In this document: piece by piece, positions 8,684 through 47,751 of the stretch
Position numbering within the stretch: position 1 is the first letter of the stretch
How the letters are laid out: each line of letters opens with the position of its first letter
Notes under the pieces: model-generated
Seen by the model: the letters and a program-made list of their open reading frames with translations, nothing else
Told to the model about the DNA's origin: nothing
Database searches by the model: none
Assembly: GCA_965249725.1 (NCBI GenBank)
Contig: CBDFMQ010000002.1
Location: 2,272,001-2,336,000, forward strand
Source of the DNA: Longimicrobiales bacterium
GTDB taxonomy: Bacteria > Gemmatimonadota > Gemmatimonadetes > Longimicrobiales > Gaopeijiaceae
DNA length: 64,000 nt
Reading direction: 5' to 3'
Program-made: the position numbers and the translations under genes

Positions 8684-9655
8684 TTAGCCGGCCACCTCCC
8701 CTGCGGCGCGGGAATCAACCTCTATTAGGCCAGGTCGCGGATCTCGACGGACTCGCAACTCGAAGACGTCAGGGCGCGAATAGTGCCCCGCTATGTCCAA
8801 CTGCCAGCGAGGTCCGACAAGTTGATCCGGTTCTATATCCGCGTAGAGAATGCCTTCTTCCCCCTCCAGCGGTCCCGCAACGACCTTGCCGTCTGGATCG
8901 ACGATCAGACTGAGGCCTGGATTCAGCCAGCCCTCCAACTCAGCCAAGTACTCGTCCTTGAACGCCAGGTGATCCGGCACATCGTCTTTGTGGAAGGCCT
9001 GGCACGCCGCGATCACGAAGCAGCGCCCTTCTTTCGCCACGTGCCGCATGGTCGAGATCCACGGCTCTCCGCGGTCCCATGTTGGAGCCACGTGAACCTG
9101 CTCTCCCCACGCCGTGAGTGCGTAGCGAGCCAGCGGCATGTAGTTCTCCCAGCACAGGAGTCCGCTGAGGCGTCCGAATGGGAGATCGAACACTTCGAGG
9201 TCACTGCCTGCGGCCTGCCCCCACACTAGCCGCTCACCAGCGGTCGGGATCAGTTTCCGGTGCTTTCCGAGCACGCGTCCGTCCTGGCCCAGGTAGAGCA
9301 GCGTGTTGTAGAGCGTTGAGTCGCTGGCCTCTGAGTTCCTCTCGTTCACCCCAATCGCAACGGTGACACCGCAATCACCGGCGGCGTCAGCCAAAAGGCT
9401 CACCTCGGGCCCAGGAATGGAAACGGAATTGCCGTGGAGCTGAGCGTAGAGCTCCCGGAGGGGGTGCGTCTTTCCCGGCGGGATGAACCAGACCCACAGT
9501 GGATAACCGGGCACGAACGCCTCTGGGAACGCGACGAGCGTAGCCCCCGCGTTTGCGGCGGCCTCGATCAGTTGGCACGCCTTCGCAATCGTGGCGTCCA
9601 AGTCTAAGAACACAGGGGCGGCTTGGACCGCCGAGATTCTGAAGGGTTCCGACAC
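8684..9655 (-). CDS. Nitrilase (carbon-nitrogen hydrolase), cassette gene
   Basis: Glu-Lys-Cys triad: FPEAF, HRKLIPT, LCWEN. Confidence 0.9.
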   Translation of the reverse strand: MSEPFRISAVQAAPVFLDLDATIAKACQLIEAAANAGATLVAFPEAFVPGYPLWVWFIPPGKTHPLRELYAQLHGNSVSIPGPEVSLLADAAGDCGVTVAIGVNERNSEASDSTLYNTLLYLGQDGRVLGKHRKLIPTAGERLVWGQAAGSDLEVFDLPFGRLSGLLCWENYMPLARYALTAWGEQVHVAPTWDRGEPWISTMRHVAKEGRCFVIAACQAFHKDDVPDHLAFKDEYLAELEGWLNPGLSLIVDPDGKVVAGPLEGEEGILYADIEPDQLVGPRWQLDIAGHYSRPDVFELRVRRDPRPGLIEVDSRAAGEVAG

Positions 9656-9718
9656 CGTCCTGGGTCTCCTTCTTCAAGGGTCCGTCCAATCTGTGATTGT
9701 ACTTCGAAAACTCATGTC

Positions 9719-9861
9719 CGATAACGGGCTCACGGACTCAAGACGCGGAGGTGGCGAAGCCACCGGAGTGTCCGCGAAGCGGCCGGCCCGTTGCTCACGT
9801 TAGAGCTTCGCGCTCCAGAGCGACAGCGGACCCAGGGCCATGCGTGAGTCTGGCGTTATCG
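9719..9861. repeat. attC-like site, family A
   Basis: CGATAAC-GGGCTCACGGACTCAAG...GAGTCTGGC-GTTATCG. Confidence 0.85.
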
Positions 9862-10004
9862 GGCGTGAGTGCGGTCGCACCATCACGATCGCGCCAGTGC
9901 GATGCACTCCACCTTGCGCCGACGCCGGTTGAGAGTAGCCCTTCCCCCAGGCCCTCTGATCCGTTATACGTACATTTGGATATCACTCATACGTAGGGGG
10001 ACCT

Positions 10005-10235
10005 GTGGCCAAGACCAAACTCACGTTGTCGGTCGATAAGGCTTTGGTGGTGAAGGCGAAGCAGTTCTCGCAGAGGAACGAGACAACGGTCTCGGAGTTG
10101 GTATCACAGTTTCTGGCGTCGTTGGACGATGACCGTGGGATAGCGGCACCCATTACCTCACGCCTTCGTGGCATATTGCCTTCTAGCGTCGAACGCGAGG
10201 GATACCGCGAACATCTCGAGGAGAAGCACGGGTGA
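10005..10235 (+). CDS. Antitoxin (DUF6364-like)
   Basis: KTKLTLSVD..LV.KAK..S......VSELV; overlaps the PIN gene. Confidence 0.75.
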   Translation: MAKTKLTLSVDKALVVKAKQFSQRNETTVSELVSQFLASLDDDRGIAAPITSRLRGILPSSVEREGYREHLEEKHG

Positions 10236-10648
10236 CGCGGGTGCTACTCGACGTCAACGTGGTGCTCGACGTCTTGGCTGACAGGAAGCCTTTCGCAGAG
10301 GAGGCTACCGCGCTATTCGGCGTGATCGAAGCCGGTGGACTGCACGGCTTCGTGGCGGCCCATACGATCACCACGCTTCACTATCTCCTGGCGAAGCACC
10401 TTGGGAAGGCGAAGACGCGCAGGGTGTTGATGGACCTACTTCAGCTACTCCGAGTGGTGGAGGTAGATGAGGATCGTCTGCGGCATGCGTTGGGACTGAA
10501 TTGGACCGACTTTGAGGATGCCGTGCAGGCAGCCTGCGCGGAGAAGGCGGAGACGGACTATCTCGTAACCCGGGACAAGAAGGGATTCACGCGGTCCGCG
10601 GTGAAGCCGGTAACGCCTGCCGAGTCGTTGGTCCTGATCCAAGAATAG
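10232..10648 (+). CDS. PIN-domain (VapC-like) toxin
   Basis: VLLDVNVVLD...DFEDAVQ...LVTRD. Confidence 0.85.
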   Translation: MTRVLLDVNVVLDVLADRKPFAEEATALFGVIEAGGLHGFVAAHTITTLHYLLAKHLGKAKTRRVLMDLLQLLRVVEVDEDRLRHALGLNWTDFEDAVQAACAEKAETDYLVTRDKKGFTRSAVKPVTPAESLVLIQE

Positions 10649-10691
10649 ACCGAGCTAGCTGATTAGCGTGAGCACCTCCAACATTCATGTC

Positions 10692-10835
10692 CGATAACGG
10701 GCTCACGGACTCACGACGCGGAGGTGGCGGAGCCACCGGAGTGTCCGCGAAGCGGCCGAGCCGCTGGTCATCGTAAGACCCGTCAGCCTACTCGCGAAAG
10801 CGAGCTGAGGCTCGAGCTTGAGTCCGGCGTTATGT
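10692..10835. repeat. attC-like site, family A
   Basis: CGATAAC...CTTGAGTCCGGC-GTTATGT. Confidence 0.85.
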
Positions 10836-11014
10836 GGCGTGAGGGCGGTCACGGCGCCACATGAGCTCGAGTGCAATGCACCCCACTTGCTCTGTCAGAG
10901 TTAGGCGGCCTCCGGTTGAGCGAATCAACAGCCGGCCTCGGCTCACAAAGCACCTGTGATTGAGTCCTCCTCGTCCCACACAAGAACCCCCAAGGGTCGT
11001 CGTGGCGCCAACAC

Positions 11015-11764
11015 CTAGCTTATTAGCGAAAGCCCCCAGGACCTCATCGTGTCCGTGGTGCTAAGTCCTGCCGCCGCACCTACCAGTACGATCAGGCCGA
11101 CAAGACCTCCCAGGAGCACCCAAGGTGGTCGCCGCCGTATGATCCAGTCGCTCCCAATGACCGTGACGACCAAGGCGAGCATCGACAGGGGGAACCACAC
11201 GTCCATTGCGTTTTCGACGCCGGACCGCCGCCAGATGCGATCGATCGCCGGAAAGACGATAGTGATGGACGCCAACAGCATGAAATGCTTATGGATTTGA
11301 GGTGTCCGCCGGTAGTACGCCGCACTCCCCACAAAGATGGTGAATACCAACAGGAAGGCGATGTTCACGCAGAGGTCGAGCACGGCCTCCGCCATGAACG
11401 CCAGTGCCCGTTCAGGGCCCACCAGACCAACGAGGCGATGCGGGATGAACAGAAGTGTCGTAACTGCGCTTGCTACAACGACGGGGATGGCCAAAAGGAG
11501 CCCCGCAGCGCCGAGTCTTCGGTGCAGGTCTGGGCGACGCGACGCGATCAACAGCGTCTGCGTGAAGAACACGACAAACCAGGCCGTGAGAACCCCGCCG
11601 TGTACGTGTATGTAGAGGGGTAGCTCGGGTGTCTCGAAGAAGACCTTGAGAAAGAAGCTTGGTGAGAAGCCGACCAGGACGATCACGAGTAAGACACCGG
11701 CAGTCACCACAAAGAATCGATCGTACAGTTGTGCGCCACCCCACGAGCGTGTTCCGTTGCTCAA
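11015..11764 (-). CDS. Multi-pass membrane protein, cassette gene
   Basis: ~7 hydrophobic segments; HG..LTAW, LHRRLG, HKHFML His motifs. Confidence 0.7.
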   Translation of the reverse strand: MSNGTRSWGGAQLYDRFFVVTAGVLLVIVLVGFSPSFFLKVFFETPELPLYIHVHGGVLTAWFVVFFTQTLLIASRRPDLHRRLGAAGLLLAIPVVVASAVTTLLFIPHRLVGLVGPERALAFMAEAVLDLCVNIAFLLVFTIFVGSAAYYRRTPQIHKHFMLLASITIVFPAIDRIWRRSGVENAMDVWFPLSMLALVVTVIGSDWIIRRRPPWVLLGGLVGLIVLVGAAAGLSTTDTMRSWGLSLIS

Positions 11765-11861
11765 CCTTTGGAGTCCTGTGGCTTCGAGACTTCACACCAC
11801 GGTGTCAGAGTTATTAAGACCGTCTAGCTAAGTTAGTGATTGCACTTCAAAAACTCATGTC

Positions 11862-11975
11862 ATATAACGGGCTCACGGACTCACGACGCGGAGCAGAGCC
11901 ACCGGAGTGTCCGCGAAGCGGCCGAGCCGTTGGTCATCGTAAGACCCGAGCTGCCGGAGCGCGACAGCGCGGAGG
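11862..11975. repeat. attC-like site, family A, right end missing
   Basis: ATATAAC-GGGCTCACGGACTCACG...; no closing GGCGTTA. Confidence 0.7.
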
Positions 11976-12021
11976 CCCTGCATCGAGACGGGATCAGGAC
12001 GGCATCGCTAGGCCATCGGTG

Positions 12022-12642
12022 TCAGTCTTCGCCGCCCGGGGTGGGACGGGCCTGGGATACAAACAACCCCGTCACGCCACCATGTACCAACACCGACAGC
12101 GCGACGTACATACCCGTCGGTCCGCTCTGGGTAATCGCGCCGACAGTGACTGAGGTGAGCAGTCCTGCGGCTACGCCGAGGGTGCTGCCAAGGAGCGCGC
12201 GGCCCGACGAAGGTGTGCCGTTGGCACGACGAGCGCCTGCGTGGGCGCCGATGGCGCCTCCGACCCACCCTCCGACTAGGTAGCCCAATGCTCCCCCAAC
12301 ATCGCAGTCATCGTAGCCGCAATCCGAGGTGAGTGACTGACCGATGAGGTAGCCCAGCGCCACGCCCGTTCCGGAGCCAATCACGCCTCCGAGCACCGCA
12401 GTGCTCCGCAAGCGACCTGAGACGGTGTCCTCCTGTGTCACCCGGGGCAGCCGACTCGGTAAGAGCGATTCACGACTACCCGCGCAGTTCGCCGAAGAGC
12501 CGGGCAGAGGTGTCACGAGCAGCGAGCCCGGTTCCGCCGAGCCCACGCGGGGGTTCGCTGGAGCGTTTCGGTCCAGTGAGCCAGTCGCGCATCCGGCTGC
12601 GAGGACGGCCGCCACAAGAGGTGGGAAACGGCAAGTCAGCAT
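12022..12642 (-). CDS. Gly-rich membrane lipoprotein, cassette gene
   Basis: LAAGC lipobox, glycine-zipper-like hydrophobic helices. Confidence 0.6.
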   Translation of the reverse strand: MLTCRFPPLVAAVLAAGCATGSLDRNAPANPRVGSAEPGSLLVTPLPGSSANCAGSRESLLPSRLPRVTQEDTVSGRLRSTAVLGGVIGSGTGVALGYLIGQSLTSDCGYDDCDVGGALGYLVGGWVGGAIGAHAGARRANGTPSSGRALLGSTLGVAAGLLTSVTVGAITQSGPTGMYVALSVLVHGGVTGLFVSQARPTPGGED

Positions 12643-12726
12643 AGGCCCTCCAAGAACCAACGCGGTCGCTACGACCGATGGCGCTCGTCTTCAATAACTC
12701 GTGATGCTACTGCAAAAACTCATGTC

Positions 12727-12868
12727 ATGTAACGGGCTCACTGACTCACGACGCGGAGTGCCGAAGGCACGGAGTGTCCGCGAAGCGGCCGGCCTGCTGC
12801 TCACGTTAGAGCTTGTAGCCTACCAGCGACAGCGGCTCCGAGGGCCGTGCTTGAGTCAGGCGTTATAG
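12727..12868. repeat. attC-like site, family A
   Basis: ATGTAAC...CTTGAGTCAGGC-GTTATAG. Confidence 0.85.
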
Positions 12869-12881
12869 GACGTGAGTGCGG

Positions 12882-13250
12882 TTACTCCTCGCTCGCTGGT
12901 GTAGCAGGCTCTCTCAGACGTGCGCCGAGAAACCCCCCGAGACACGCGGCTATAAGGCCAGAAGCGAGGAAGGGCAAGTCGTCCCCGAAGAAGGATGCGA
13001 ATTGTCCAGAGGAAATCAGGCCGATCGTGACGAGTAGCAAACCGGGGGCAACTACCCACAACCCCCATCTCCAGGCACCACCCGGCCAGAGGATGCCGGG
13101 AAGTAACCCCGCGGCACCGAAAATGGCCGTTGAAATGAGGATCGCTGTGGCGAAAGACGGCGACTCCAATGGCAGGTTGGCTGGCGCGGCTGCCGCGAGG
13201 AGACCGAGGAGGACGGCGATCACGTAGGCGTAGCGTGGCTGCCGGTTCAT
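12882..13250 (-). CDS. Small membrane protein, cassette gene
   Basis: Four hydrophobic segments; fills the interval between two sites. Confidence 0.65.
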   Translation of the reverse strand: MNRQPRYAYVIAVLLGLLAAAAPANLPLESPSFATAILISTAIFGAAGLLPGILWPGGAWRWGLWVVAPGLLLVTIGLISSGQFASFFGDDLPFLASGLIAACLGGFLGARLREPATPASEE

Positions 13251-13313
13251 TGGGACTTCCTCTGAGATGGTGATCGTCGTCCAACTAGTCGTTTAACTTC
13301 GAAAACTCATGTC

Positions 13314-13457
13314 CGATAACGGGCTCACTGACTCAAGACGCGGAGGTGGCGGAGCCACCGGAGTGTCCGCGAAGCGGCCGGCCCGCTGCTCACGTTAGAG
13401 CTTCCAGCTTCCCCGCGACAGCGGACCCGAGGGCCGTGCGTGAGTCTGGCGTTATGT
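13314..13457. repeat. attC-like site, family A
   Basis: CGATAAC...GAGTCTGGC-GTTATGT. Confidence 0.85.
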
Positions 13458-13622
13458 GGCGTGCGCTTGGTCTCGTGACGAAAACGCCACCAAAATGGTG
13501 CGTCCGCATGGACAAGACGGTGATGGGATCATTGAGACGAAATCAGTAGTAGGACGTCACAGGATACGATGAGCCGTCCAATCCACCTGGATGTCGGCAA
13601 GGTCCGGTAGAGTGAGGTCCCG

Positions 13623-14135
13623 ATGAAGAAGTGGTTGCGGCGCATCCGAGGTGCGGTCGGAATGGGATTGACGTGGGCGGCTGGGTGGGCACCCATAGGA
13701 GCTGTCGTCGGCCTGGTGCTGGGAGTCGTTATGCCCCCGGTTCTCGGCCTTGGTGCAGTCGTCGCACTCAACGCTAAGGCCTTCGCCGCACTGGGCTTCG
13801 TAGGTGGGACGCTCTTTTCGACGGTCCTCCGGCTAGCAGAAGGTCGTCGCAGGTTCGATGAGTTGGCGCTTCCACGATTCGCCGCCTTGGGCGCGCTGGG
13901 GGGCTTTCTGCTAGGAGGGCTCGCAGTCACGCTGGGGATGTGGGGTTCGGGTTTCCAGGCTTTGGGTGTCGCGATCACCGGCATAGCCACCCTACTGGGC
14001 GCGGGCTCTGCGGCCGGTTCGCTTGCGCTCGCGCGAAAGGCTGACCAACACGAGCTGCTCGAGGCCGGTGCCGACGTGGCGGACGTTGGATTGACGGAGG
14101 AGGAGAGGCACCAATTGCTTGAGGGCCCGGCTTAA
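13623..14135 (+). CDS. Membrane protein, inverted cassette gene
   Basis: GAGG RBS, four hydrophobic segments. Confidence 0.7.
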   Translation: MKKWLRRIRGAVGMGLTWAAGWAPIGAVVGLVLGVVMPPVLGLGAVVALNAKAFAALGFVGGTLFSTVLRLAEGRRRFDELALPRFAALGALGGFLLGGLAVTLGMWGSGFQALGVAITGIATLLGAGSAAGSLALARKADQHELLEAGADVADVGLTEEERHQLLEGPA

Positions 14136-14231
14136 CTCTCGCATGAACCGAGTTTCTCGATGGCTCGGGCCCGCAAGCGATGCGCGCGCGCCGGACAGCC
14201 ACTCTGAGTGATCTATGCGGGAGCGCATGTC

Positions 14232-14380
14232 ACATAACGGGCTCACGCGCTCCCGGCGCGGAGTGCGCGCCAGCGAACGGAGTGCCCCGAAGGGACGGGC
14301 CCGTTGGTCTCCACGATAGTGTCACAACAGGTAATGCGCGAAGGCGCACCGGAGGGTCCGGCGGGAGAGCGGCGTTATAC
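14232..14380. repeat. attC-like site, family B
   Basis: ACATAAC-GGGCTCACGCGCTCCCG...CGGGAGAGCGGC-GTTATAC. Confidence 0.85.
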
Positions 14381-14476
14381 GGCGTTCCCGCCCGCCCGCC
14401 TCGAGCAGTCACACGTTGGACGACGCGATCAAGATGCCGCACGCGGTTACGGCACCTGAGGGAAAGCAATCGCCTG

Positions 14477-15067
14477 CTAGACCTCTTCCTGGCCCGAATC
14501 TGCGGGAGTCGGCATCACCTTAAGCCGGGGATCCAAGATCTGTGCGGCGATCCAAAGGTACCAGACGAGAGTTGTCAGGCCATTGGCGATCTGTGCGTAA
14601 GAGCTCGACCTCGGTTGTGCGATACCGCTCTTCCAGTTCCGTAGTGTGGAGGGCTCCACTCCGAGCAGTCGAGCGAGATCACGTTGCGTCACGCACAGCG
14701 TCCGCACTGCATCGGACACGGTCTCCGGAGGAGCCAGACCGGATGTGGAGATCTCCTCGTCTTCGAAGAAGAGAGACCACAGCGGGTCGCCTGTGGTCAT
14801 GCGCTTGAAGCGAAGCCCGACGGCCCAGAAGTAAGCGACCTGACGTTGTCGTAGGCAGAGTTCGGCCAGCTTGCGGCGATAGAAACGACCCACGCTTCCG
14901 GACGAAGACCAGTTTCGGACTGTACCGCGCGAAAGCCCAAGGAACTCGGCGAGTCGAACTTGCGGTATGCAGAGGTCTTGGACGAAGCCCCCAGCCGTCA
15001 TCTCCTCGTAGACACGTTCCGCGTAGAACGTGAAATCAAGCAGCCCGAGGGACTCTAGTTCGGTCAT
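14477..15067 (-). CDS. Protein with two XRE-type HTH motifs, cassette gene
   Basis: QVRLAEFLGLSRGTVRNW and TQRDLARLLGVEPSTLRNWKSG. Confidence 0.7.
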   Translation of the reverse strand: MTELESLGLLDFTFYAERVYEEMTAGGFVQDLCIPQVRLAEFLGLSRGTVRNWSSSGSVGRFYRRKLAELCLRQRQVAYFWAVGLRFKRMTTGDPLWSLFFEDEEISTSGLAPPETVSDAVRTLCVTQRDLARLLGVEPSTLRNWKSGIAQPRSSSYAQIANGLTTLVWYLWIAAQILDPRLKVMPTPADSGQEEV

Positions 15068-15446
15068 GCCTTGGGGTCATCGCCTGTACGTGGCGGACAA
15101 ATCATCATCCAGCCAGGACAGGCAGCTAGGACGGGCGAAATGCGTGGGTTGCCAGGCACCGTGTCCGCGGAAAAGCATGGAACGAAATGGACACATGGCA
15201 ATCTTTTTTTTCAAGAAGGCAAGCAGAATAAGCAACAGCGCTAGCAGCTTGCCAAACGGATCCGGAAGCAGGAGCTCAAGAAGGTCGATGAGCAACGACG
15301 GATCCAGGGCGTGATCCAGGATAAGGGCAGGCATGGCTAATGGACATTATAGCACGCATCAGCTGAGAGACCAAGCCAGAGAACGTGCATCCTGTTACGC
15401 TTCAGGGCCACCAGCTAATCCGCCGACGAACTGACCGCTATCAGGA

Positions 15447-15474
15447 ATGCCGTATAACGGATTTTATACGGCGT
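15447..15474. repeat. 28-bp mini recombination site (11-6-11)
   Basis: ATGCCGTATAA-CGGATT-TTATACGGCGT. Confidence 0.8.
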
Positions 15475-15498
15475 CGTTTCGCCACGCCCTCCGGGACG

Positions 15499-15993
15499 CT
15501 AGCAGGGCGTAGCGAGTAGAGTATTGAATTCCGAACGGAATTCGGGCGAAAACGTGCCCCTCGTGGCGCACCAGCGCGGTTGGTATTGCGGGAAGGTCAT
15601 GAAGCCCCGCCACGCCTCCCGTTGGGCGGCGAACTCAGCCTCGTCGTACAGCCCCCGGCGGTACTGGTAGTGCACGTTCTCGAAGTACCGAAACATCGCC
15701 ATGGTGCGGTGGTTGAGCTGGACGGAATCCGTCGGCGTCAACGCTTCCGCCCTGTTCGCTCGCCTCACCAAGTCGGCCAGTTCAGGGTTTGTGGCGCCGT
15801 CACTCATCAGGTCGACAATCTGGACGGCTATCTCGTTCCTTGTCTGAGCCTCCATCATCTCTCGATTCTGTGCGAGTTCGAACGCCACGAGGAGGATCCC
15901 AGCCAACACACCGACCTCTGTAACGATAGTCAGCCATCGATTCAGTCGATCATGCTTCGGTCGTGACTGGTTCATCGCCGCCCTCGGATTCAA
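15499..15993 (-). CDS. Hypothetical protein with N-terminal TM helix, cassette gene
   Basis: GVLAGILLVAFELAQN...FENVHYQYRRG; fills the cassette. Confidence 0.65.
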   Translation of the reverse strand: MNPRAAMNQSRPKHDRLNRWLTIVTEVGVLAGILLVAFELAQNREMMEAQTRNEIAVQIVDLMSDGATNPELADLVRRANRAEALTPTDSVQLNHRTMAMFRYFENVHYQYRRGLYDEAEFAAQREAWRGFMTFPQYQPRWCATRGTFSPEFRSEFNTLLATPC

Positions 15994-16021
15994 CCGTTGG
16001 TTCTTCCTGCCTGCCGATGCC

Positions 16022-16165
16022 GTATAACGGGCTCACGCGCTCCCGACCGGAGCCGCATCGCGGCGTAGGTCCCGAAGGGACGGGCCCGTTGCCCTTCACG
16101 ATAGTGCCTGTCCGTCCATCCCGCGAAGCGGGTCCGAAGGGCCCGGCGGGAGAGCGGCGTTATAC
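16022..16165. repeat. attC-like site, family B
   Basis: GTATAAC...CGGGAGAGCGGC-GTTATAC. Confidence 0.85.
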
Positions 16166-16257
16166 GATGCGCCGGATCGGTGACTTTAGTCGTCACTCTC
16201 AGTGGCAACCCAACCGGCGCGGGGTTGTAGTATGTCGAAATTGACATAGTTTCCACC

Positions 16258-16596
16258 ATGAGTCCTGACGACAAGCCGATCGTATGGATTGCCGGTGAGG
16301 TGAAGACGCCGCCTTTCTCCGCAGAGGCGAGGATTGAGGTGGGCATGCTGTTGCGACGACTCCAGAGGGGAGATCGTCTCTCGATGCCGCACTCGCGGCC
16401 GATGACTTCAATTGGACGAGGGTGTCATGAACTCCGGGTTGTGGATGAGGGCGCAACGTGGCGCATCGTGTACTTCGTGGACTCGGATGCAGTGGTGATC
16501 CTCGACGTGTTTTCGAAGAAGACGCGGGCGACACCGAAGCGAGTGATGTCGATCTGTCAGGGACGTTTGAGAGACTACAAAGAGGCTAGGCGGTAA
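16258..16596 (+). CDS. RelE/ParE-family (Gp49-like) toxin
   Basis: EVKTPPFS...SMPHSRPM...CHELRV...WRIVY...VFSKKT. Confidence 0.85.
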   Translation: MSPDDKPIVWIAGEVKTPPFSAEARIEVGMLLRRLQRGDRLSMPHSRPMTSIGRGCHELRVVDEGATWRIVYFVDSDAVVILDVFSKKTRATPKRVMSICQGRLRDYKEARR

Positions 16597-16617
16597 GCGC
16601 CCGAGGGAGACGCGAGA

Positions 16618-16950
16618 ATGGACAAGGCCACAAAGAAGAGACTTGAGCGGGCGGGGTGGAGCACCGGTGACGCCAAAGACTTCCTCGAACTCTCAGAGGC
16701 GGAGGCGGCGTTCATCGACATGAAGTTGGCTTTGGCAGAAGACGTCCGAGCTCTGCGCCTAAACAGACACCTGAACCAGACACAGGTAGCGCGAATCCTC
16801 GGATCCAGTCAATCACGGGTCGCGAAGATGGAGGCGGCGGACTCGAGCGTGTCGATCGATCTCCTCATCCGGTCCCTCTTGAAGCTCGGAGCGAAGCGGA
16901 AGGATGTCGCGAAGGCGGTAGCACGGAAGAGGGTTGAGGCAGCAACCTGA
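16618..16950 (+). CDS. XRE-HTH antitoxin
   Basis: QTQVARILGSSQSRVAKME; follows the toxin. Confidence 0.85.
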   Translation: MDKATKKRLERAGWSTGDAKDFLELSEAEAAFIDMKLALAEDVRALRLNRHLNQTQVARILGSSQSRVAKMEAADSSVSIDLLIRSLLKLGAKRKDVAKAVARKRVEAAT

Positions 16951-16975
16951 GCCCTAACGCCAGGTTGAAGTAGGC

Positions 16976-17003
16976 GTGTCGTATAACGGATTTTATGCGA
17001 TGG
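16976..17003. repeat. 28-bp mini recombination site (11-6-11)
   Basis: GTGTCGTATAA-CGGATT-TTATGCGATGG. Confidence 0.8.
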
Positions 17004-17014
17004 AGGCCGGACAC

Positions 17015-17050
17015 TACGCCATTGACGTATGTGCGCCAATGGCGCATAGT
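17015..17050 (+). promoter_or_regulatory. sigma70-type promoter with palindromic operators for the higBA-like pair
   Basis: TTGACG-17 nt-CATAGT overlapped by TACGCCATTGACGTA and TGCGCCAATGGCGCA. Confidence 0.6.
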
Positions 17051-17054
17051 TGTG

Positions 17055-17373
17055 ATGGTCATCAAGGAAACCTCCGTGTTCACGAGGCAAGTCGATAAGC
17101 TGCTCGACAAGGAGTCCTTTCGACTCCTTCAGCTTCGGCTCGTGGAGAACCCTGAGGCAGGAGATCTGATCAGAGGCACCTGGAGGGCTCCGCAAGATCC
17201 GTTGGCAGGGCTCGGGCCGCAGTAAGCGCGGGGGAGTCCGAGTGATCTACTATTGGGCCCGCGAGGATGAAGTCGTTCTCCTCCTTCTCATGTATGGGAA
17301 GAACGAGCCGGGCGACCTCTCTCCCCAACAACGGACGATTCTGAAGCGCTTGGTGGAGGAAGAATTCTCATGA
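17055..17373 (+). pseudogene. HigB/RelE-like toxin with a 1-nt frameshift near 17181
   Basis: MVIKETSVF...NPEAGDLIRGT | GGLRKIRW...KRGGVRVIYY...YGKNE continues in another frame. Confidence 0.8.
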
Positions 17374-17657
17374 ATGACGATCTATTCAATGAACTCGTAG
17401 CGAGTGTTGAGGAGGGCGGAGCCATTCTTCGAGGGGAGAAGGAGGCCTCTCGGACTCACGTCGTCGAGGATCCCGACGTCGCCGCGATTCGAGAGGGGTA
17501 CGGTCTCTCTCAGGCGAAGTTCGCCGCTCTCCTCGGAATCAGCGTGAGGACGCTCCAGAACTGGGAGCAAGGACGTCGCCATCCCCATGGACCCGCGCGA
17601 GTGCTACTTCGAGTTGCCGCTCGCCATCCCCGGGCGGTTCTTGAGACTGTTAAGTAG
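17370..17657 (+). CDS. HigA-like HTH antitoxin
   Basis: GLSQAKFAALLGISVRTLQNWEQGRRHP.GPA. Confidence 0.88.
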   Translation: MNDDLFNELVASVEEGGAILRGEKEASRTHVVEDPDVAAIREGYGLSQAKFAALLGISVRTLQNWEQGRRHPHGPARVLLRVAARHPRAVLETVK

Positions 17658-17691
17658 CGACTCCCACTCGCCACTCGTTCGTACCTCCGTC

Positions 17692-17840
17692 GCATAACGG
17701 GCTCTCGCGCTCCCGGCGCGGGCTGAGCGCCAGCGAACGGAGTGCCCCGAAGGGACGGGCCCGTTGGTCTTCACGATAGTGCCGCACCCGCTAATGCGCG
17801 AAGGCGCGCCGAAGGGTCCGGCGGGAGAGCGGCGTTAGCA
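17692..17840. repeat. attC-like site, family B
   Basis: GCATAAC...GTTAGCA; interior identical to the 18704 site. Confidence 0.88.
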
Positions 17841-17856
17841 GACGTGCCGGTCCATC

Positions 17857-18657
17857 TCACCACCTGTCGGTGCGGAAGGATGATGCTGGAAGCCCAGCGT
17901 TGTTGAAGAGAGAACCGACAATCCAATTCGTCCAGGCGTATCGGACGGCGGTAGGATTCGGAACAGCTTCACTTGAGACACGCAGGTTTCCACCGCCAAC
18001 GATGACGGCTTCGGCGGGATGGAACACCTTGTCTTCACCCGCCACAGTGAAACTGGTCAACTCGCGGCCGAAACTGGATAGGCCGTCGGGTGCGTGGTCG
18101 AACTCCAGGACGGCTGCACCCTCTTCGACCGTGGAGGACGTGCTCGACGTGCCCTTCGGCGCCATTGACAGCTCTTGGGGCGGTACGCCGCATCGACTTC
18201 GGCCAACGCGTTGGACTTCAGCGCTATCGGGCATGCGTTCATCATCGTTGCTGCGCAGGACGGGTTGGCTGGGGTAGCCTCTGAAGGGCATTTGCATGTT
18301 GGACTGGCCAGACATGAGCCAAACTTCACCGACGACGACATCTTGGAATCGAACGGTCTCGGTCGCGTCACCCGTCCGGGCTTGGACGGAGAGCTCACGA
18401 GGCTCAGCGCTGGCCTCGGGAGAATCGAGGCGGATCATCCATCTCCCGTCGGCCGCGGAGGTAGTCGAGTAGGACTGCCCGGCGAAACGCACGGTGACCT
18501 GGGCGCCCGCAGCGGCCCATCCCCAAACAGGATCTGGAGCGCCGCGCTGCAGAACCATATGGTCGGAGAAGATCGATGGGAGACGAAGTTGAGCGGAAGC
18601 AGGGGCCGGAAACAGAAGCGCGGCAAGGACCGATAGATAGGCTACTCGTCGTGGCAT
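17857..18657 (-). pseudogene. Sialate O-acetylesterase with apparent internal deletion
   Basis: N-terminal LPSIFSDHMVLQR and GEVWLMSGQSNM plus C-terminal AVRYAW...GLPASSFRTD are present; the central region appears missing (266 aa). Confidence 0.7.
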
Positions 18658-18703
18658 AGGTGTGCTCCGTCCTAACTCGCCATTGTGAAGCTCAAAGCAT
18701 GTC

Positions 18704-18852
18704 TGCTAACGGGCTCTCGCGCTCCCGGCGCGGGCTGAGCGCCAGCGAACGGAGTGCCCCGAAGGGACGGGCCCGTTGGTCTTCACGATAGTGCCGCACC
18801 CGCTAATGCGCGAAGGCGCGCCGAAGGGTCCGGCGGGAGAGCGGCGTTACGC
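18704..18852. repeat. attC-like site, family B
   Basis: TGCTAAC...GTTACGC. Confidence 0.88.
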
Positions 18853-18865
18853 GGAGTCGCGCACC

Positions 18866-19090
18866 CTAGTGGTGGGCCAGGTTCCGCACGTGGAGAATCT
18901 CGCGGGCCTCAATCGGACGCAGATCAGCGCTCGAAAGAGTGACGACCGCCACCGTTCCACCTTCCCCGGAGACGAATTCGACCTCATAGGAGTCGTCGGC
19001 GTGCCGATGCACAATCGCCCCGACGTCGCCCACCTCGAGTCCGGCATCTGGAAGGTCCCGGCGCAGAACGACCGTATCGAGCTCTTTCAT
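18866..19090 (-). CDS. DUF4926-like small protein
   Basis: ELDTVVLRRDLP..GL..GDVGAIV.......YEVEF. Confidence 0.75.
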   Translation of the reverse strand: MKELDTVVLRRDLPDAGLEVGDVGAIVHRHADDSYEVEFVSGEGGTVAVVTLSSADLRPIEAREILHVRNLAHH

Positions 19091-19094
19091 ACCT

Positions 19095-19296
19095 CTATCT
19101 CCGCGTCGGGTAAGCGGTTACCAGTACAGGGACATCCTCACCCGTGACCATCCATACGGTGCCGAGGGACACGAATCAACACGTCCTGCTGTTTCCAGTC
19201 GCTGGCCAAGTCCTCTTCAGAAATCTCGGACGTGAGCGACGAGACTCGCTCTAGCGCCTGAAGCATGTGGGCCAGAAAGGCCCGGTCACGATTCAT
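19095..19296 (-). pseudogene. Fused remnants: HEPN/DUF86 N-terminus joined to DUF6883-like C-terminus
   Basis: MNRDRAFLAHMLQALER...QQDVLIR (19296 to ~19171), then out-of-frame TVWMVTGEDVPVLVTAYP. Confidence 0.65.
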
Positions 19297-19573
19297 CGAA
19301 GACGACGACGGCCGAGCCGAGAATGGACTCGCGCATGAAGGGGCTGATACCCGGCTCCGTCAGTAGGTCAACCGGGCGCCTGAAGAATCTGGCCAATTCG
19401 TCTTCGGCGCGGATCAACTCGAAATAGCCGATGCCGCTTCCGAAATCCGCGATCAAATCAACGTCGGAATCGGAATGCTCCTCGCCCTTGGCCGCGGACC
19501 CAAACATCCGAAGCCTGACAATGGCATGGCGACGACAACACTCGGCGAGCCGATCTTGATCAAACTGAACCAT
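19286..19573 (-). CDS. MNT minimal nucleotidyltransferase antitoxin
   Basis: FGSAAKGE...SDVDLI...RPVDL. Confidence 0.85.
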   Translation of the reverse strand: MVQFDQDRLAECCRRHAIVRLRMFGSAAKGEEHSDSDVDLIADFGSGIGYFELIRAEDELARFFRRPVDLLTEPGISPFMRESILGSAVVVFDES

Positions 19574-19629
19574 GTCGAAAGGTCTCTCCTAACAACCTCC
19601 AACGTCAATCGGCACCCCTCACAAGTGCT

Positions 19630-19657
19630 TTGTCCGATAACGGATTTTATGTGACGC
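19630..19657. repeat. 28-bp mini recombination site (11-6-11)
   Basis: TTGTCCGATAA-CGGATT-TTATGTGACGC. Confidence 0.8.
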
Positions 19658-19721
19658 GCCGTTGGTGGACCTCATCAATAGCTACGAAACCCCAAAGGAC
19701 CTAAGGCAAATCGCGGTCTGC

Positions 19722-20537
19722 TCAGTCCCAGGCGACCACCTCGACCTCGGTCGGCTCGTCGAACCCCTTGAGACTGATGGAGCCGAGCGAAGTGAACGAG
19801 AGGCCCTTGCCCATGCACAGATCCCGGACGACTCGGGCGGCCAGTATCTGACCTGGCTCGGCGTGATCGCAGATGCGGGATGTGAGGTTGATTGTCGATC
19901 CGAACAATGCGTCGCCGTCGAGAACGGGCTCTCCTGCCCCGATGCCGATCTTCGCCCGCACGGGGATGCCGTCCGCGCCGTCAGAGGCATCCGCAGTCAG
20001 CTTGGCCTGAATCGTCATGGCGCAAGAGACTGCGGCGAAGGCCGACTCGAAGCTCGTCAGGAATCCGTCGCCCGCGCGGTCAACCTCCCGTCCACCGTGC
20101 TCGACTAAAGCTGCTCTCACCGTGTTCCGATAACGTCGCACGACTTCGAGAGCTGCAGCATCACCCAGTGTTCGAGTGATGTCCGTCGAGCGGACCATGT
20201 CGACGAAGAGGATCGCTCGAAAGGCACTCTCTCGAATCGGCTCCGAGTCGACGCTTTCGGGATCGGCGACCCGACCGAGGAAATGCGCGACAGTGGTTGG
20301 GTCGACCTCGATGACTTGGTGGGGAATCAGCCCGTGAGCTTCTCGATGCATCTCCCGGACGGCCTCCGCTGAGGGAGCCTCGACGAGGCAGAAGGCGGCT
20401 CCCCGAGGCTCGTCGTACCAGTAGGTGAGGGCCTTACAGGAGTGTCTGCCCTGCACCTTGACGTCCTGGTGATGGGCCGCCGCCACTTCCTCTGAGGTCA
20501 CGTCCCGAATGTCGTGTCGATCCATGAATAGCGGCAT
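19722..20537 (-). CDS. DUF4242-like domain + class III nucleotide cyclase, first cassette
   Basis: MPLFMDRH...FCLVEAP...HREAHG; ILFVDMVRST, GDGF, GDALFGSTINLTSR. Confidence 0.8.
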   Translation of the reverse strand: MPLFMDRHDIRDVTSEEVAAAHHQDVKVQGRHSCKALTYWYDEPRGAAFCLVEAPSAEAVREMHREAHGLIPHQVIEVDPTTVAHFLGRVADPESVDSEPIRESAFRAILFVDMVRSTDITRTLGDAAALEVVRRYRNTVRAALVEHGGREVDRAGDGFLTSFESAFAAVSCAMTIQAKLTADASDGADGIPVRAKIGIGAGEPVLDGDALFGSTINLTSRICDHAEPGQILAARVVRDLCMGKGLSFTSLGSISLKGFDEPTEVEVVAWD

Positions 20538-20626
20538 GCGTACGTTTCCTTCCGTGGGGTCCGGCCCAATAGGACGAATCGAGGCTCGCTCTGCGCTTCA
20601 CCCGCCAATTGTACTACCCGACAGGC

Positions 20627-20702
20627 GTGTCATGTAACGGGCTCTTCACGAACCATATCAAGTTATCCGCCAAACGGCGACGTCATAACGTCTGACGTCG
20701 CC
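20627..20702. other. Candidate primary (attI-like) site
   Basis: GTGTCATGTAA-CGGGCT not followed by the hairpin body; nearby GTTATCC and a GGCGACGTCA/TGACGTCGCC inverted repeat; lies at the recombinase 3' end. Confidence 0.5.
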
Positions 20703-20761: not shown

Positions 20762-21395
20762 CTACTCCTCCCGCAACAGCCTATCTAGCGGGCTCTCTAC
20801 ATCCGTGGCCTCCCGGCGTGCGACGTGCGTATACAGCACGGTCGTCTTGATCTGACTGTGGCCGAGCAACTTCTGGATGTAGCGAAGGTCGGTTCCGGCC
20901 TCGAGGAGATGGGTGGCGAAGGAGTGCCGGAGCACATGAGGGGTGACGGGTCGGTCGATCCCGGCACGTTTGGCGGCGGCCGCCACTTGCCGTTGTACGG
21001 TCCGGGTCGTCAGGTGACGGTCGCGGCGGTGACCGGCCGGGAAGAGCCAGTCGTGAGGCCGTTCTACCGCAGCGTACTCGCGGAGCACCGCCAGCAGCAC
21101 AGCCGAGAGCATCACGTAGCGGTCCTTGCCTCCCTTCCCGTCGCGTACATGGATCATCATCCGATCGGAGTCGATGTCCGAGACCTTGAGGCGTACGACC
21201 TCACCCACACGGAGACCGCTCGCGTAGAGGACGAACGCGATGGCTATCAGTCCGCGCTTCCAGAAAACGCCTGGTGTGGGCCAGATAGAGTCGCTTCGTG
21301 CCGCGGGCGAACCCGCGAAGCGCCATCTCTTCCTTCATCCGAGAGAGCAACTCCTCGGAGTGAGCCGAGCGCCTAGGGTCTTTTGGATGGGGCAT
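20762..21395 (-). pseudogene. Tyrosine recombinase (SAM-like N-terminus + catalytic domain), internally deleted and frameshifted
   Basis: LLSRMKEEMALRGFARGTKRLYL..RRFLE joined out of frame to LYASGLR...GKGGKDR...HVLRHSFATH...LGHS....T..Y...SPLD. Confidence 0.85.
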
Positions 21396-21743: not shown

Positions 21744-21898
21744 CAAGTAACCGGAGTTATTGCGGCCCCACGTGGGGTCCCGAGGCCCCATTCCCACCCC
21801 TAACTCACCGACGCCAAAAAGCCGGAAGCCCAGATCCCTCCTAGACTCCCGGCGAGTGAGCCGGGTGGGTCTCGAACCCACGACCTACGGATTAAAAG
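21744..21898 (-). repeat. att repeat: tRNA-Lys 3' part (21857-21898) plus conserved arm region
   Basis: 42-bp identity to the tRNA; diverged copy of 47566-47678. Confidence 0.85.
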
Positions 21899-22387
21899 AA
21901 CCTGGATGGATGCTCGCCAACGCTGGTAGCCGCTTGACTGCTGGGTTTGACGCTCGTGGGCGATCACTGGGCTCGTGCCCTAGGGTCCAGGGCACGCTCC
22001 CCTGCCGCCCATCCACGCGTCCCGGCGTCTCATCCGCGTATCGGAGTCTCCACTGCCGCCCTTTCCATCCGATCACGCTTCGGTGTGCCCTTACCCAGAG
22101 TCTTCCCTCCAACTGGACCATCCATCACTGCACGCCATACCTCGGCCTTGGACCCAAAGGGCGGTTGGATCTCCTATCCATCAGCGCGGAGATCGTCGAG
22201 GAGAGCGTTTCGGAGCTGGGCAAGCCCTTCACGGTCGTCATGTATGGCAACGGCGATCGCGGCTTACGGGACGCCGACAGCGGACAGCCGATTCCCTATT
22301 GGAACGATTTACTCCCCTGGCTAGACGGCGTCATCGAGTAAGATCAGGCTGAGTACGGACCATCGCGTCGTGGGATTTCGTCGGGAC

Positions 22388-42245: not shown

Positions 42246-42282
42246 CCATCTAACCAGCGTATGTGCTGCGACAGCTCATGTC

Positions 42283-42431
42283 CGATAACGGGCTCACGAA
42301 CTCACGACGCGGAGTGAGCGCAGCGAACGCAGTGCCCCGGAGGGGCCGGGCCCGTTGATCTTCACGATAGTGTTACAGCAGCGAATTCGCGAAGGCGCAA
42401 CGCGGGGTCTGGCGGGAGAGCGGCGTCAGGC
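42283..42431. repeat. attC-like site (A/B hybrid), array 2
   Basis: CGATAAC-GGGCTCACGAACTCACG...CGGGAGAGCGGC-GTCAGGC. Confidence 0.8.
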
Positions 42432-43190
42432 GTCGTCAGCCTGTTCGAGCAGTTCGCCCACCAGATGTGGACGCCAAACCCTGCCCACCTCAACCTCGTC
42501 ATGGATCCGCCCCGAGTAGATTCCCAGAAACGCTGTGGCTCCTCCTCCGATGTTGAGAGCCCCGCTCTTAGAAGGGTAAGACCCCATCGATCGATAAACT
42601 ACCGGTGACCCGGACATCCCCCCACGAGTGGTCGCGTCGATCAGAAAAGCGGGTTTGCCGTCATAGTCAATGTCCGGATCGGACGCGATGTGTCCCGTCT
42701 TCCAGATCGGAAAGGCCACTCCGGTCGCAAGGCCATAGGGGTATCCGATGATCGAAACGGACATCGCCGGTTGTAGCCGCACATCGTGCTCGGCAGACCC
42801 GAGGTCAAGGGGGTGGAGCTGAATATCGGAGTCAGATAGGTCCAATTCGAGCCCTGCAAGATCAACCGCTGCGCCTTCCGGATGCTCGACCCACAGGGCC
42901 TCACCCTCACTATCCACGAGGGGCTGCGTGATGTGCTTCCACGACCCGAGCCTCTTCGCGTGATGAACAATCATGATCTCGTCAGGAGTCGCGCCGGTCG
43001 GTGAAAGCGGTTGGTTGTCCTCAGGGTTCCTGCCGGAGAGAACGTGCCAATTCGTAATCAGATGCGACCCACTCTCAGTTTGAACGACGAAAGCAGTTGC
43101 GGTGCCGAGTTGCTTGCCTCGTGCGCGGAGTTCAACTCTCAGACTCGTGCAACTAAGAGGATCGATGACAATCGTCTTCGGGTCTGCCAT
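42426..43190 (-). CDS. Trypsin-like serine protease, cassette gene
   Basis: ITNWHV, VDLA, GGMSGSPV. Confidence 0.85.
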   Translation of the reverse strand: MADPKTIVIDPLSCTSLRVELRARGKQLGTATAFVVQTESGSHLITNWHVLSGRNPEDNQPLSPTGATPDEIMIVHHAKRLGSWKHITQPLVDSEGEALWVEHPEGAAVDLAGLELDLSDSDIQLHPLDLGSAEHDVRLQPAMSVSIIGYPYGLATGVAFPIWKTGHIASDPDIDYDGKPAFLIDATTRGGMSGSPVVYRSMGSYPSKSGALNIGGGATAFLGIYSGRIHDEVEVGRVWRPHLVGELLEQADDA

Positions 43191-43222
43191 TTCTTGGTCA
43201 ATTCAGATTTCGAGGCGATGAC

Positions 43223-43439
43223 GTATAAAGGGCTCACGGACTCACGACGCGCAGTGTCCGCGAAGCGGCCGGCCCGTTGCTCATCGTAAGATCAGGGCTG
43301 CCGGAGCGCGACAGCGTGGAGGGACGAGTGCCCACCTGATAGCGGACCGACCCCTAAGGTCGGCGATTGCGAGCCGTGTGACTGAGCCACGCGCGGGAGC
43401 ACTCGTTATCGAGGGCCGCGCTTGAGTCCGGCGTTATAG
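43223..43439. repeat. attC-like site, family A, with internal insertion
   Basis: GTATAAA-GGGCTCACGGACTCACG...CTTGAGTCCGGC-GTTATAG. Confidence 0.75.
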
Positions 43440-43587
43440 GACGTGAGTGGGGGGGCAACCGCATATCGTGGTGCGGCGTCCATCTGCGGATTGGAGATCA
43501 ATCGGACACCGGCGCGGCTGCGTTCCGCGCCGGTCATGGCCCGGATAGGGCTTGTTGTCGGGCCCGGACGTCTCCGCCGCCTTCGGG

Positions 43588-44922: not shown

Positions 44923-45087
44923 GGGGCTTGCCTGGGCAGAAGTTCAGACGGGCGTGCGTCCCGGAAGGGACGCGATCCGCCCTAATGACCACTGACGCGC
45001 CCTGGGTGTTGAACCCGCTTGGGGGATCCGATCTCCGGGATTCCGTGCCAGAAGGGAGGGGAGATCTCCGCACCATCCCGAGAATCC

Positions 45088-45115
45088 ATGTCCGATAACG
45101 GGCTATGTGCGACGT
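45088..45115. repeat. Degenerate mini site
   Basis: ATGTCCGATAA-CGGGCT-ATGTGCGACGT. Confidence 0.6.
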
Positions 45116-45286
45116 ACGTCACTCCGCAAGTAGGCCTGTCGACTCGCCGCGGGCGGGTGCCCGCAGATAATCGCCAAGCGATTCCTGCAGTCCCGGTAGA
45201 CGTCTAGCTCGCGCGCTTCGCTTGCGGTCCACATCTTGATCGCGCAGCAGAATCGCAATCCGTTAGATGGCGAACTCGAGGAGACA

Positions 45287-45646
45287 ATGAACGAGCAAGG
45301 TGGCTACATCCTGACCGAGATCTGGAACGCGAGGCCCTCTTGGGCAGCCCTCCCTCCGGACGAGCGCCTTCGTTTCTTCGAGGAGAAGGTCGGACCTCTG
45401 CTCATGGGCCTCATCGATGAGGGGGCTGAGATTCTCGCCTGCGCAATCAATGACAATACGGGCAGCGAGCGCATAGACTATCGGTACATGGCCGTTTGGC
45501 GGGTTCCGGACAAGGCATTCGGCGATCGCCTCGAGGCAGCGGCCAAGGCTGCCGGCTTTCTGGACTATTTCGAGCAGGTGAACTTCAGTGGCAATGCGAT
45601 CACACCCGATGCGTTGAACGGCGATATGCTGCAGTTCGCTCTCTGA
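45287..45646 (+). CDS. Conserved hypothetical protein (DUF6616-like)
   Basis: GAGGAG RBS; EIWNARPSW...Y.AVW..P...YFEQVN.SG. Confidence 0.6.
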   Translation: MNEQGGYILTEIWNARPSWAALPPDERLRFFEEKVGPLLMGLIDEGAEILACAINDNTGSERIDYRYMAVWRVPDKAFGDRLEAAAKAAGFLDYFEQVNFSGNAITPDALNGDMLQFAL

Positions 45647-45691
45647 TGCACGGGGCGTGCGCCGTTCGGGCCTACATGTCCCGGCCCACCC

Positions 45692-45739
45692 CCGTCACCT
45701 AACGCGTGGTTGTACCGGCCAAAGCACGTTACGTGATGC
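45692..45739. repeat. Short (~48-bp) attC-like hairpin
   Basis: CCGTCACCTAAC...GTTACGTGATGC. Confidence 0.45.
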
Positions 45740-45812
45740 AGCGTGGCCGACATCCGCAGTGCGACGTCGCTCATCTAAGGCGGTCTAGTGGAGGCACGCG
45801 ACTCGCTCAGTG

Positions 45813-46427: not shown

Positions 46428-46477
46428 GGCGTTAGATAGCGACGCGTAGAGAGATGTGTCCGTCGACAAGCTTTGTC

Positions 46478-46623: not shown

Positions 46624-46629
46624 GACCTG

Positions 46630-47678: not shown

Positions 47679-47751
<73 letters not shown>

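Follow-up and report, generated by a model that had tools for sequence, protein, structure and literature searches.

A probable sedentary integron-type array with cassette-specific complementary ends beside a Xer-like recombinase pseudogene in a Longimicrobiales genome

Between 9.7 and 20.7 kb of a 64,000-nt stretch of a Longimicrobiales genome (G000:C3:2272001-2336000, hereafter the window; genome 4.16 Mb, 64% G+C), similar sites alternate with short genes, and the right arm of each site tends to pair with the left arm of the site that follows it. What kind of element carries ends that match across its genes, and which recombinase belongs to it? The present analysis indicates that this region is very probably a sedentary array of the integron type, its 12 gene cassettes lying between attC-like sites. 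The recombinase gene at its head is a pseudogene of a Xer-like lineage without the additional I2 domain of the integron integrase IntI. We lean slightly towards this lineage being the cognate recombinase, and thereby towards the Longimicrobiales (Gemmatimonadota) having an integron of a second kind, to which arrays of Bacteroidota-type genomes would be related. The complementary ends only confirm integron logic; the unusual part is the enzyme.

Complementary ends and the layout of the array

A preliminary description of this DNA, made from its letters alone, had proposed that the right arm of each site is complementary to the left arm of the following one, and had illustrated this with seven word pairs. 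All seven lie exactly where it had placed them and are exact reverse complements, and 10 of the 11 testable cassettes conform to the rule. Every right-arm/left-arm combination was scored over the 12 nt beyond the TAAC and GTTA cores. Pairs within a cassette (right arm of site i with left arm of site i+1; n = 11) averaged 8.64 Watson-Crick pairs, or 10.64 with G:T pairs included, whereas pairs within a site (n = 12) and the remaining right/left pairs (n = 133) averaged 5.67 and 5.25 Watson-Crick pairs, respectively. When the partners were permuted, the observed cognate sum was reached in none of 20,000 permutations. At the three variable positions next to the core, the pairing is perfectly Watson-Crick in 7 of 11 cassettes and complete in 9, compared with 3 and 4 of 12 within sites. 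It extends about 11 positions past the core, giving a stem of roughly 15 bp. Besides, an exact 8-nt reverse complement lies 300-1500 nt downstream of 5 of the 22 GTTA-words in the array region and of none of the 42 GTTA-words in the 44.7 kb of the window outside the arrays.

The same pattern was replicated beyond this array. For 17 cassettes from a second array of the window and from genomes G001, G002, and G041, cognate arms averaged 8.18 Watson-Crick pairs of 12 versus 5.20 for non-cognate arms, again with 0 of 20,000 permutations reaching the observed value. For 20 cassettes of three other genera, whose site sequences are unrelated and whose arrays are headed by homologous recombinases, the corresponding values were 8.6 to 8.7 of 10 versus 4.0 to 4.3 (permutation p = 0.0000, 0.0012, and 0.16 for n = 11, 6, and 3, respectively).

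Thirteen sites were mapped on the + strand of the array region. The full sites (nine by count; S1, S2, and S4 to S9 by name) begin with a left core, TAAC, end with a right core, GTTA, and measure 143-150 nt; they are accompanied by a truncated site (S3), three mini-sites of 22-24 nt (M1-M3), and a terminal attI-like site (S10). S1 (9710-9870; TAAC at 9722, GTTA at 9855; nhmmer E 9.5e-42) forms the distal end as a complete site and adjoins a nitrilase-family gene (8684-9655, - strand). It is followed by S2 (10683-10844; cores at 10695 and 10829), S3 (11853-11979; TAAC at 11865, 3′ end with the right core missing, profile positions 3-140 only), S4 (12718-12877; cores at 12730 and 12862), S5 (13305-13466; 13317 and 13451), and S6, a type B site (14223-14389; 14235 and 14374). 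M1 (15443-15478; TAAC at 15455, TTTA at 15463) precedes S7 (16013-16174; 16025 and 16159), and M2 (16972-17007; TAAC at 16984, TTTA at 16992) precedes S8 (17683-17849; 17695 and 17834) and S9 (18695-18861; 18707 and 18846). After M3 (19626-19661; TAAC at 19638, TTTA at 19646), the series ends at S10 (20623-20668), which consists of a left arm and a TAAC (20635) without an attC body. The left arm and TAAC of S10 pair with the right arm of M3, and a GC hairpin comes after them at about 20674-20702.

The twelve cassettes (9855-20638, array read on the - strand) hold 17 open reading frames (ORFs), one or two each, with the coding strand being - in eight and + in four. Three of the four +-strand cassettes are toxin-antitoxin-like (DUF6364 plus PIN, 10005-10648; Gp49/HigB-like plus helix-turn-helix, 16258-16950; and 16995-17657 with a helix-turn-helix antitoxin). 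The other products include a DUF4926 protein, a nucleotidyltransferase, an SCO4226-like/cyclase protein, and membrane or unknown proteins. The sites themselves have the form of attC-type sites, being imperfect inverted repeats with AAC and GTT ends and a length within the 50-200 nt of attC, lying in tandem between ORFs, and each folding at about -31 to -40 kcal/mol. Ten full sites from both window arrays aligned with 78% mean column identity and fell into two subtypes. By a whole-genome profile search, the family is confined to these two arrays and one fragment on contig C1. Hairpins with C-GAA-G or GCGAAGC-type triloops, which are known for unusual stability in single-stranded DNA, occur several times in the site bodies (9722-18860) on the + strand; the - strand reads CTTCG there.

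All three mini-sites share one layout, an arm ending in TAA, six identical bases CGGATT, and an arm beginning with TTA, the arms being about 11 nt long. To judge by their letters, they alone among the sites are built like Xer/dif core sites, with an identical central region in 3 of 3. The arms of M2 fit their cassette partners perfectly and fit each other more poorly. Because their arms obey the cassette rule, the mini-sites appear to have served as cassette boundaries. Allowing up to one mismatch, they gave no match in G001, G002, or G041 and were found only in this genome.

Crossover point and probable folded strand

Where does the exchange take place? Crossover at either core keeps both ORF-flanking arms in one cassette, and complementarity alone cannot discriminate between the cores. 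The location was provided by G041. The segment 18707-19166 is 88% identical to a part of G041:C4, and the match begins exactly at the T of the S9 TAAC; the arms upstream of this TAAC differ between the two genomes, and the site body and right arm are common to both. We placed the crossover at TAA/C of the left core because this homology boundary falls there, and because the mini-sites retain TAAC yet carry TTTA in place of GTTA. Two further reasons are that the recombinase-side end of the array is a left arm and TAAC followed by non-site sequence, and that the far end, S1, is a complete site. The preliminary description had spoken of crossover at G/TT and had listed GTTAT words. Left-core TAA/C is G/TT on the - strand, but the GTTAT words are not the place. 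Its wider argument, that the arms travel with the cassette, holds: the arm scores, the folding of cassette junctions, and the boundary at TAAC 18707 all mark the array sites as chimeric, and each site body belongs with the cassette on its right (+ coordinates).

The recombinase-side end is consistent with this placement. At two G002 loci and one G041 locus, the last TAAC is succeeded by about 110 nt of conserved sequence; S10 of the window retains the left arm and TAAC only, and by comparison with these junctions it may be regarded as attI-like. One of the two G002 loci deserves separate mention. The second G002 array (L026) ends with this same attI-like stretch of about 110 nt (G002:C8, 17032-17200), no recombinase gene comes after it, and the platform seems to have lost its integrase.

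We infer that a free circular cassette would carry a single site, whose stem would be formed by the two arms that flank the ORF in the array. The exchange would involve one strand and one position, which in + strand letters separates AA from C in the left core (G/TT on the - strand). An array site would then take its left arm from the cassette on its left, and its body and right arm from the cassette on its right. A single-point exchange of this kind would make every array site chimeric, and since the sites are chimeric, the right arm of site i would be complementary to the left arm of site i+1 and usually not to that of site i itself. The folded bottom strand would be the + strand, and the array would be read on the - strand from the attI-like junction at 20635, just downstream of the recombinase gene. 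This principle is known and not new: matching cassette ends follow from a single crossover at G/TT (AA/C on the + strand) in attC. The original papers on the attC crossover are reportedly those of Hall, Stokes and colleagues. The chimeric nature of attC sites in arrays, with crossover at a single point in the core, is stated in passages of Cury et al. 2016 (PMC4889954). A shared DUF6364 plus PIN module was discarded as evidence for travelling arms, as it is present in G001 (83-84% identity) but outside any array.

The placement at left-core TAA/C makes the - strand the top strand and the + strand the bottom strand. The preliminary description had likewise taken the + strand as the probable folded substrate, and this choice is supported by the attI-like end and the position of the recombinase gene, by the ORFs, which lie on the - strand in 8 of 12 cassettes, by folding, and by a wobble at position 7 of the arms. 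For the folding, circle junctions were built in silico from the left arm, site body, and right arm that belong to one cassette. In 9 of 11 cases the fold of such a junction was more stable than that of the chimeric site in the array, and the cognate left arm ranked first of 13 in 7 of 11. The + strand was more stable than the - strand in 11 of 11 junctions (mean -37.5 versus -34.3 kcal/mol). In the consensus fold, a helix beside the core stem shows compensatory changes between the two subtypes. Bottom-strand folding together with extrahelical bases in attC recombination is treated in parts of PMC4792948.

As for the residual mismatches, most had been described as G:T pairs. In the 10 conforming cassettes G:T is indeed the majority (19 G:T, 3 A:C, and 6 other), but about half of these pairs sit at position 7, which is G:T in almost every window cassette on the strand opposite the integrase gene. 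The window excess of G:T falls to only about 9 versus 3 when position 7 is left out. A general G:T mutational signature was set aside as an argument, being without position 7 about 19 versus 14 in the window and its close relatives and not decisive alone. In the three other genera, every cassette has A.C at position 7 when the integrase-coding strand is read, and a T:G wobble when the opposite strand is read, and overall these cassettes show 25 A.C and 0 G.T on the integrase-coding strand. The clearest Bacteroidota-type cassettes have the same wobble (GTTR-nnnnn-AAT versus ACT-nnnnn-YAAC). Such a one-strand wobble would be expected either from folding of that strand on itself or from arms made consistently different, left from right, for a duplex-reading protein, and cannot separate the two.

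The recombinase at the array head and competing explanations

The gene next to S10 is a tyrosine recombinase pseudogene (20762-21380, - strand), whose N-terminal piece runs into the catalytic domain in a different reading frame. About 85 residues are missing, and the IntI-specific insertion is absent. The pseudogene matches PF00589 (E 6.6e-42), and it scores 164 bits against the integron integrase model TIGR02249 (cut-off 265), with model positions 179-230 unmatched. In alignment, the pseudogene and its intact relatives have about 41 residues fewer than canonical IntI between the KDR motif and the HxLRH box. Thus, where an integron would have an adjacent integrase with the IntI-specific domain of roughly 35 residues, the window has a Xer-like recombinase, and the ordinary integron assumed in the preliminary description does not extend to the enzyme. 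The NCBIfam model that matches the pseudogene and its relatives best is NF040815 ('site-specific tyrosine recombinase/integron integrase'), against which the G002 protein scores 219 bits (cut-off 220). By sequence, the closest solved relative is archaeal XerA (4a8e, E 6e-44), and VchIntIA (2a3v) matches in two pieces. Because the adjacent recombinase is a pseudogene, the array is probably frozen, unless a distant canonical IntI acts on it in trans.

Two single-base differences were seen in the contigs of public sequencing runs. In 3 of 4 runs the split toxin-like ORF 16995-17372 has one more A after position 17193, and in 2 of 4 the recombinase pseudogene lacks one base at 21184. The window frameshifts may therefore be strain variants or assembly errors. 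Outside the window, an isolated fragment (G000:C3:2837739-2837936) is similar, at 43% identity, to the array-heading recombinase over its N-terminal 67 residues.

Intact homologues in other genomes stand in the same place. G002 encodes a 307-residue homologue with the same layout and the attI-like junction, beside three or four sites, and at least six sites come after the G041 homologue, which is 84% identical to that of G002. Of 151 sampled genomes of the order, 37 have a homologue with E no higher than 1e-40 (a tally that includes G104, flagged as unpublished, on which nothing else here depends). Eight further Longimicrobiales loci on long contigs were examined for repeats, and in seven of them an array ended by TAAC and GTTA lies 3′ of the recombinase gene in the same orientation; the eighth (L125) is unclear. 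Among relatives from Bacteroidota-type metagenome-assembled genomes (40-48% identity), repeat families point to arrays downstream in at least 5 of 16 loci (L037-L040 and L051), L037 holding textbook cassettes. These 16 are the loci with at least 2.4 kb downstream; many other contigs stop within 1 kb of the gene. The hidden Markov model of the Longimicrobiales site matched nothing in the 30 loci where other genera carry the recombinase and have different site families, nor in the Bacteroidota-type loci. An anchored inverted-repeat search stayed at background overall (47 matches downstream versus 45 upstream) and was used for single clear cases only. attC finders based on minimum free energy or on duplexes were rejected, as they missed known sites and returned false matches.

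A tree of 31 rows gives separate clades to genes linked to IS91 (support 100/99), canonical IntI (100/100), and housekeeping Xer (99/96). The array-heading genes form one group with genes of unassigned context (89/90), whose order relative to the IntI and IS91-linked groups the tree does not settle. The tree is small and midpoint-rooted, and its context labels were assigned by us.

The most serious competing explanation, which we consider possible though doubtful, is that the arrays are clusters of attC sites lacking integron integrases (CALINs), made and moved in trans by a distant canonical IntI, with the Xer-like recombinase as a bystander. Both window arrays have the composition of CALINs, that is, at least two clustered sites and no IntI within about 4 kb. 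A canonical IntI gene above the TIGR02249 cut-off of 265 bits is present in G000 (C3:1028977-1029906, 335 bits, 1.24 Mb from the window), G002 (309 bits), and G041 (392 bits), and may act in trans. The extra domain has also been held necessary for folded attC substrates in passages of PMC9024848 and PMC4792948, and several arrays, namely the second window array, L026, L027, and L029-L031, have no recombinase homologue in the stretch fetched. However, within 40 kb examined around the canonical IntI genes of G000, G002, and G041, no site of this family lies within 17-20 kb, and no repeat family ended by TAAC and GTTA is found on their attI side. In contrast, the Xer-like gene heads a co-oriented array in G002 and G041 as it does in the window, and at 7 of 8 further loci in the order; it also heads arrays, recognized by repeat families, in at least 5 Bacteroidota-type loci, and the 110-nt junction after the last TAAC is conserved in three loci.

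An unlikely alternative is that the recombinase remnant was left behind by an IS91-family element that carries an upstream integrase gene and was inserted at the array end. Homologues of the recombinase (44-58% identity) are in fact coupled to an IS91 Y2 transposase in multi-copy 2.5-kb repeats of G011 and G089, and also at L069, and 155 residues of the window remnant align with the G011 copy at 54% identity. The repeat occurs at seven places on G011:C1 and on G089:C22, with copies 99.8% identical and an integrase gene of this family immediately followed by the Y2 transposase gene. The remnant is, however, closer to the array-heading gene of G002 (62% over 157 residues), and the three IS91-linked genes form a clade of their own, apart from the array-heading group. 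No Y2 (HUH) transposase gene lies directly downstream of the window remnant; none was matched anywhere in G002 or G041, the sole match of G000 lies 46 kb away, and no array-heading locus has one in the fetched range.

That the sites are dispersed palindromic repeats, such as repetitive extragenic palindromes or miniature inverted-repeat transposable elements, or small RNA genes, with ends matched by duplication or gene conversion, would suit their length (about 150 nt), high similarity, strong structure, and the one arm sequence common to four consecutive junctions, and is yet highly improbable, as the family forms two tandem clusters only, has no Rfam match at E up to 0.1, is complementary by between-site unit and not by site, shares its homology boundary with G041 on the core, and follows the same logic in arrays with unrelated site sequences. 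The argument of the preliminary description against simple dispersed repeats is borne out by the tandem clusters, the cassette-specific arms, and the core boundary.

In addition to the canonical IntI genes and the arrays without a neighboring recombinase, other observations weigh against reading the region as an integron-type array worked by a Xer-like enzyme. The cassette from S9 to M3 (18846/19638) does not conform, with 3 Watson-Crick pairs of 12, and S3 has no right core. In the G041 array L035, the three variable positions are often mismatched and one of 7 pairs fails outright. As for structure, the core stem and the helix that follows it are separated by a very asymmetric spacer (about 6 nt 5′ versus 1 nt 3′), the site body is branched unlike canonical attC, and the classical extrahelical G/T was not identified in the consensus fold of the sites. 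The mini-sites have no second (L-box) stem and, as folded sites, would offer one binding duplex only. In the public-run contigs neither a circle junction nor a rearranged array was seen, although contigs cannot show rare circles. The block 14281-17724 is colinear in X2, X5, and X6, the three runs with contigs across it, and the contigs of X1 have a gap at 15216-15472.

The S9 to M3 unit may have a simple history. Its homology to G041 stops at 19166, where the window, G041, and a contig of two public runs diverge, and in G041 the S9 right arm has a complementary partner 2.1 kb away (9 Watson-Crick and 2 G:T pairs of 12). On this comparison, recombination outside a site seems to have exchanged the far part of this cassette, which would explain the loss of match between its ends.

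Seven public runs from four studies contain the stretch, as contigs that break at full sites. Site-to-site joints in such contigs are ambiguous, since related site copies of other strains map at 90% likeness. One joint is found in 4 of 4 public runs, with a contig connecting 11975 (inside the truncated S3) to 12839 (inside S4) and omitting 863 nt, which is one site-to-site unit; its depth (7.5-16.6) is similar to that of the flanks. It may represent a population variant without the 12022-12660 cassette or a paralogous site.

The second and smaller array of the window (42270-46635, + strand) belongs to the same site family. It consists of T1 (cores at 42286 and 42425), T2 (43226 and 43433), T3 (45096, left core only), and T4 (46481 and 46617), all on the + strand. 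T2 is 218 nt long and, compared with the family consensus, has about 80 nt inserted internally. A partial tRNA-Lys copy covering the anticodon loop and everything 3′ of it (21760-21905, - strand) and the intact tRNA-Lys(TTT) gene (47679-47751, - strand) belong to a direct repeat of the tRNA 3′ half and about 170 nt of downstream flank (21760-21905 and 47540-47751, both - strand), 26 kb apart and about 90% identical. On its recombinase or array-head side, either array is accompanied by one copy, an arrangement that suggests tandem tRNA-Lys-integrated islands or a segmental duplication, each with one array.

Implications and comparison with known systems

In the accepted view, a folded attC requires the IntI-specific domain, and arrays without such an integrase are filed as CALINs, which vastly outnumber complete integrons in metagenomes. 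If a Xer-like enzyme without this domain builds and shuffles the present arrays, many of these 'orphan' arrays would have an overlooked integrase, and integron-type gene capture would be taxonomically wider than current detection tools report. This would be a second kind of integron, with an integrase transcribed towards its array and sites with long arms of Xer length. A fixed bottom-strand G:T wobble would replace the classical extrahelical bases for strand choice, and dif-like mini-sites (arm, six bases, arm) could also bound cassettes. An intermediate has been postulated between Xer/dif and the single-strand recombination of integrons; such a system would be a living relative of it, and the step from one to the other would become testable with natural enzymes and sites.

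Our search of full texts, supplements aside, found no published description of cassette arrays headed by a recombinase without the IntI domain. The accessible text of an Antarctic integron paper (PMC8435808) likewise contains nothing on integrases without this domain. The domain itself is described in sections of PMC4889954, which also report non-IntI tyrosine recombinases near attC in 50 of 18,808 cases, four of them intermediate between IntI and Xer with fewer than 3 sites, and conclude that such neighboring recombinases are not integron integrases. In the relevant passages on IntegronFinder 2.0, few elements are reported in Bacteroidetes.

Among known arrangements, the window arrays fit the CALIN definition as worded in portions of PMC4889954, with an IntI elsewhere in the genome. 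They differ from it in that a specific non-IntI recombinase lineage recurs here at the array head. The inverted-integrase integrons of Treponema and others, as outlined in the same source, resemble the window in having an integrase gene oriented like the cassettes. Unlike the window lineage, however, their enzymes are reported there as IntI that match the IntI-specific profile.

The delta-attI-type cassettes of mobile integrons are similar in that they are bounded by very short non-attC sites, and such sites are reported, in the pertinent part of PMC12901181, to be functional with IntI1. In contrast to them, the mini-sites of the window share only TAACGG with the attI-like junction. The IS91 elements with an upstream tyrosine recombinase carry an enzyme of the same broad family (44-58% identity), whereas array-heading genes have no adjoining Y2 transposase and fall in a separate clade.

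A dif-type double-stranded core site has two inverted arms of about 11 bp that flank a central region of 6-8 bp, identical between partner sites. The Xer/dif system and the pdif modules of Acinetobacter plasmids (PMC7399989, in part) are close to the window in the layout of the mini-sites and in the recombinase, which among solved structures is nearest by sequence to archaeal XerA. The full sites differ from them in measuring about 135 nt between cores and in their strand-specific pairing and cassette-specific arms. We found no evidence linking the housekeeping XerC/D to the window sites.

Sedentary chromosomal integrons, for example the superintegron of Vibrio cholerae with its Vibrio cholerae repeat (VCR) sites, are also close to the window in organization. 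As generally known for these, tandem short cassettes of one or two genes are separated by highly similar sites with AAC/GTT cores and chimeric arms, many cassettes encode toxin-antitoxin pairs that are mostly reverse-oriented, and an attI-like end lies by a tyrosine recombinase. The window departs from this type in its enzyme, which has no IntI extra domain and is transcribed towards the array. It further departs in its sites, whose stems at the crossover are 11-16 bp long with a fixed wobble at position 7, an asymmetric spacer, and a branched body, and three of which are reduced to two arms around 6 nt.

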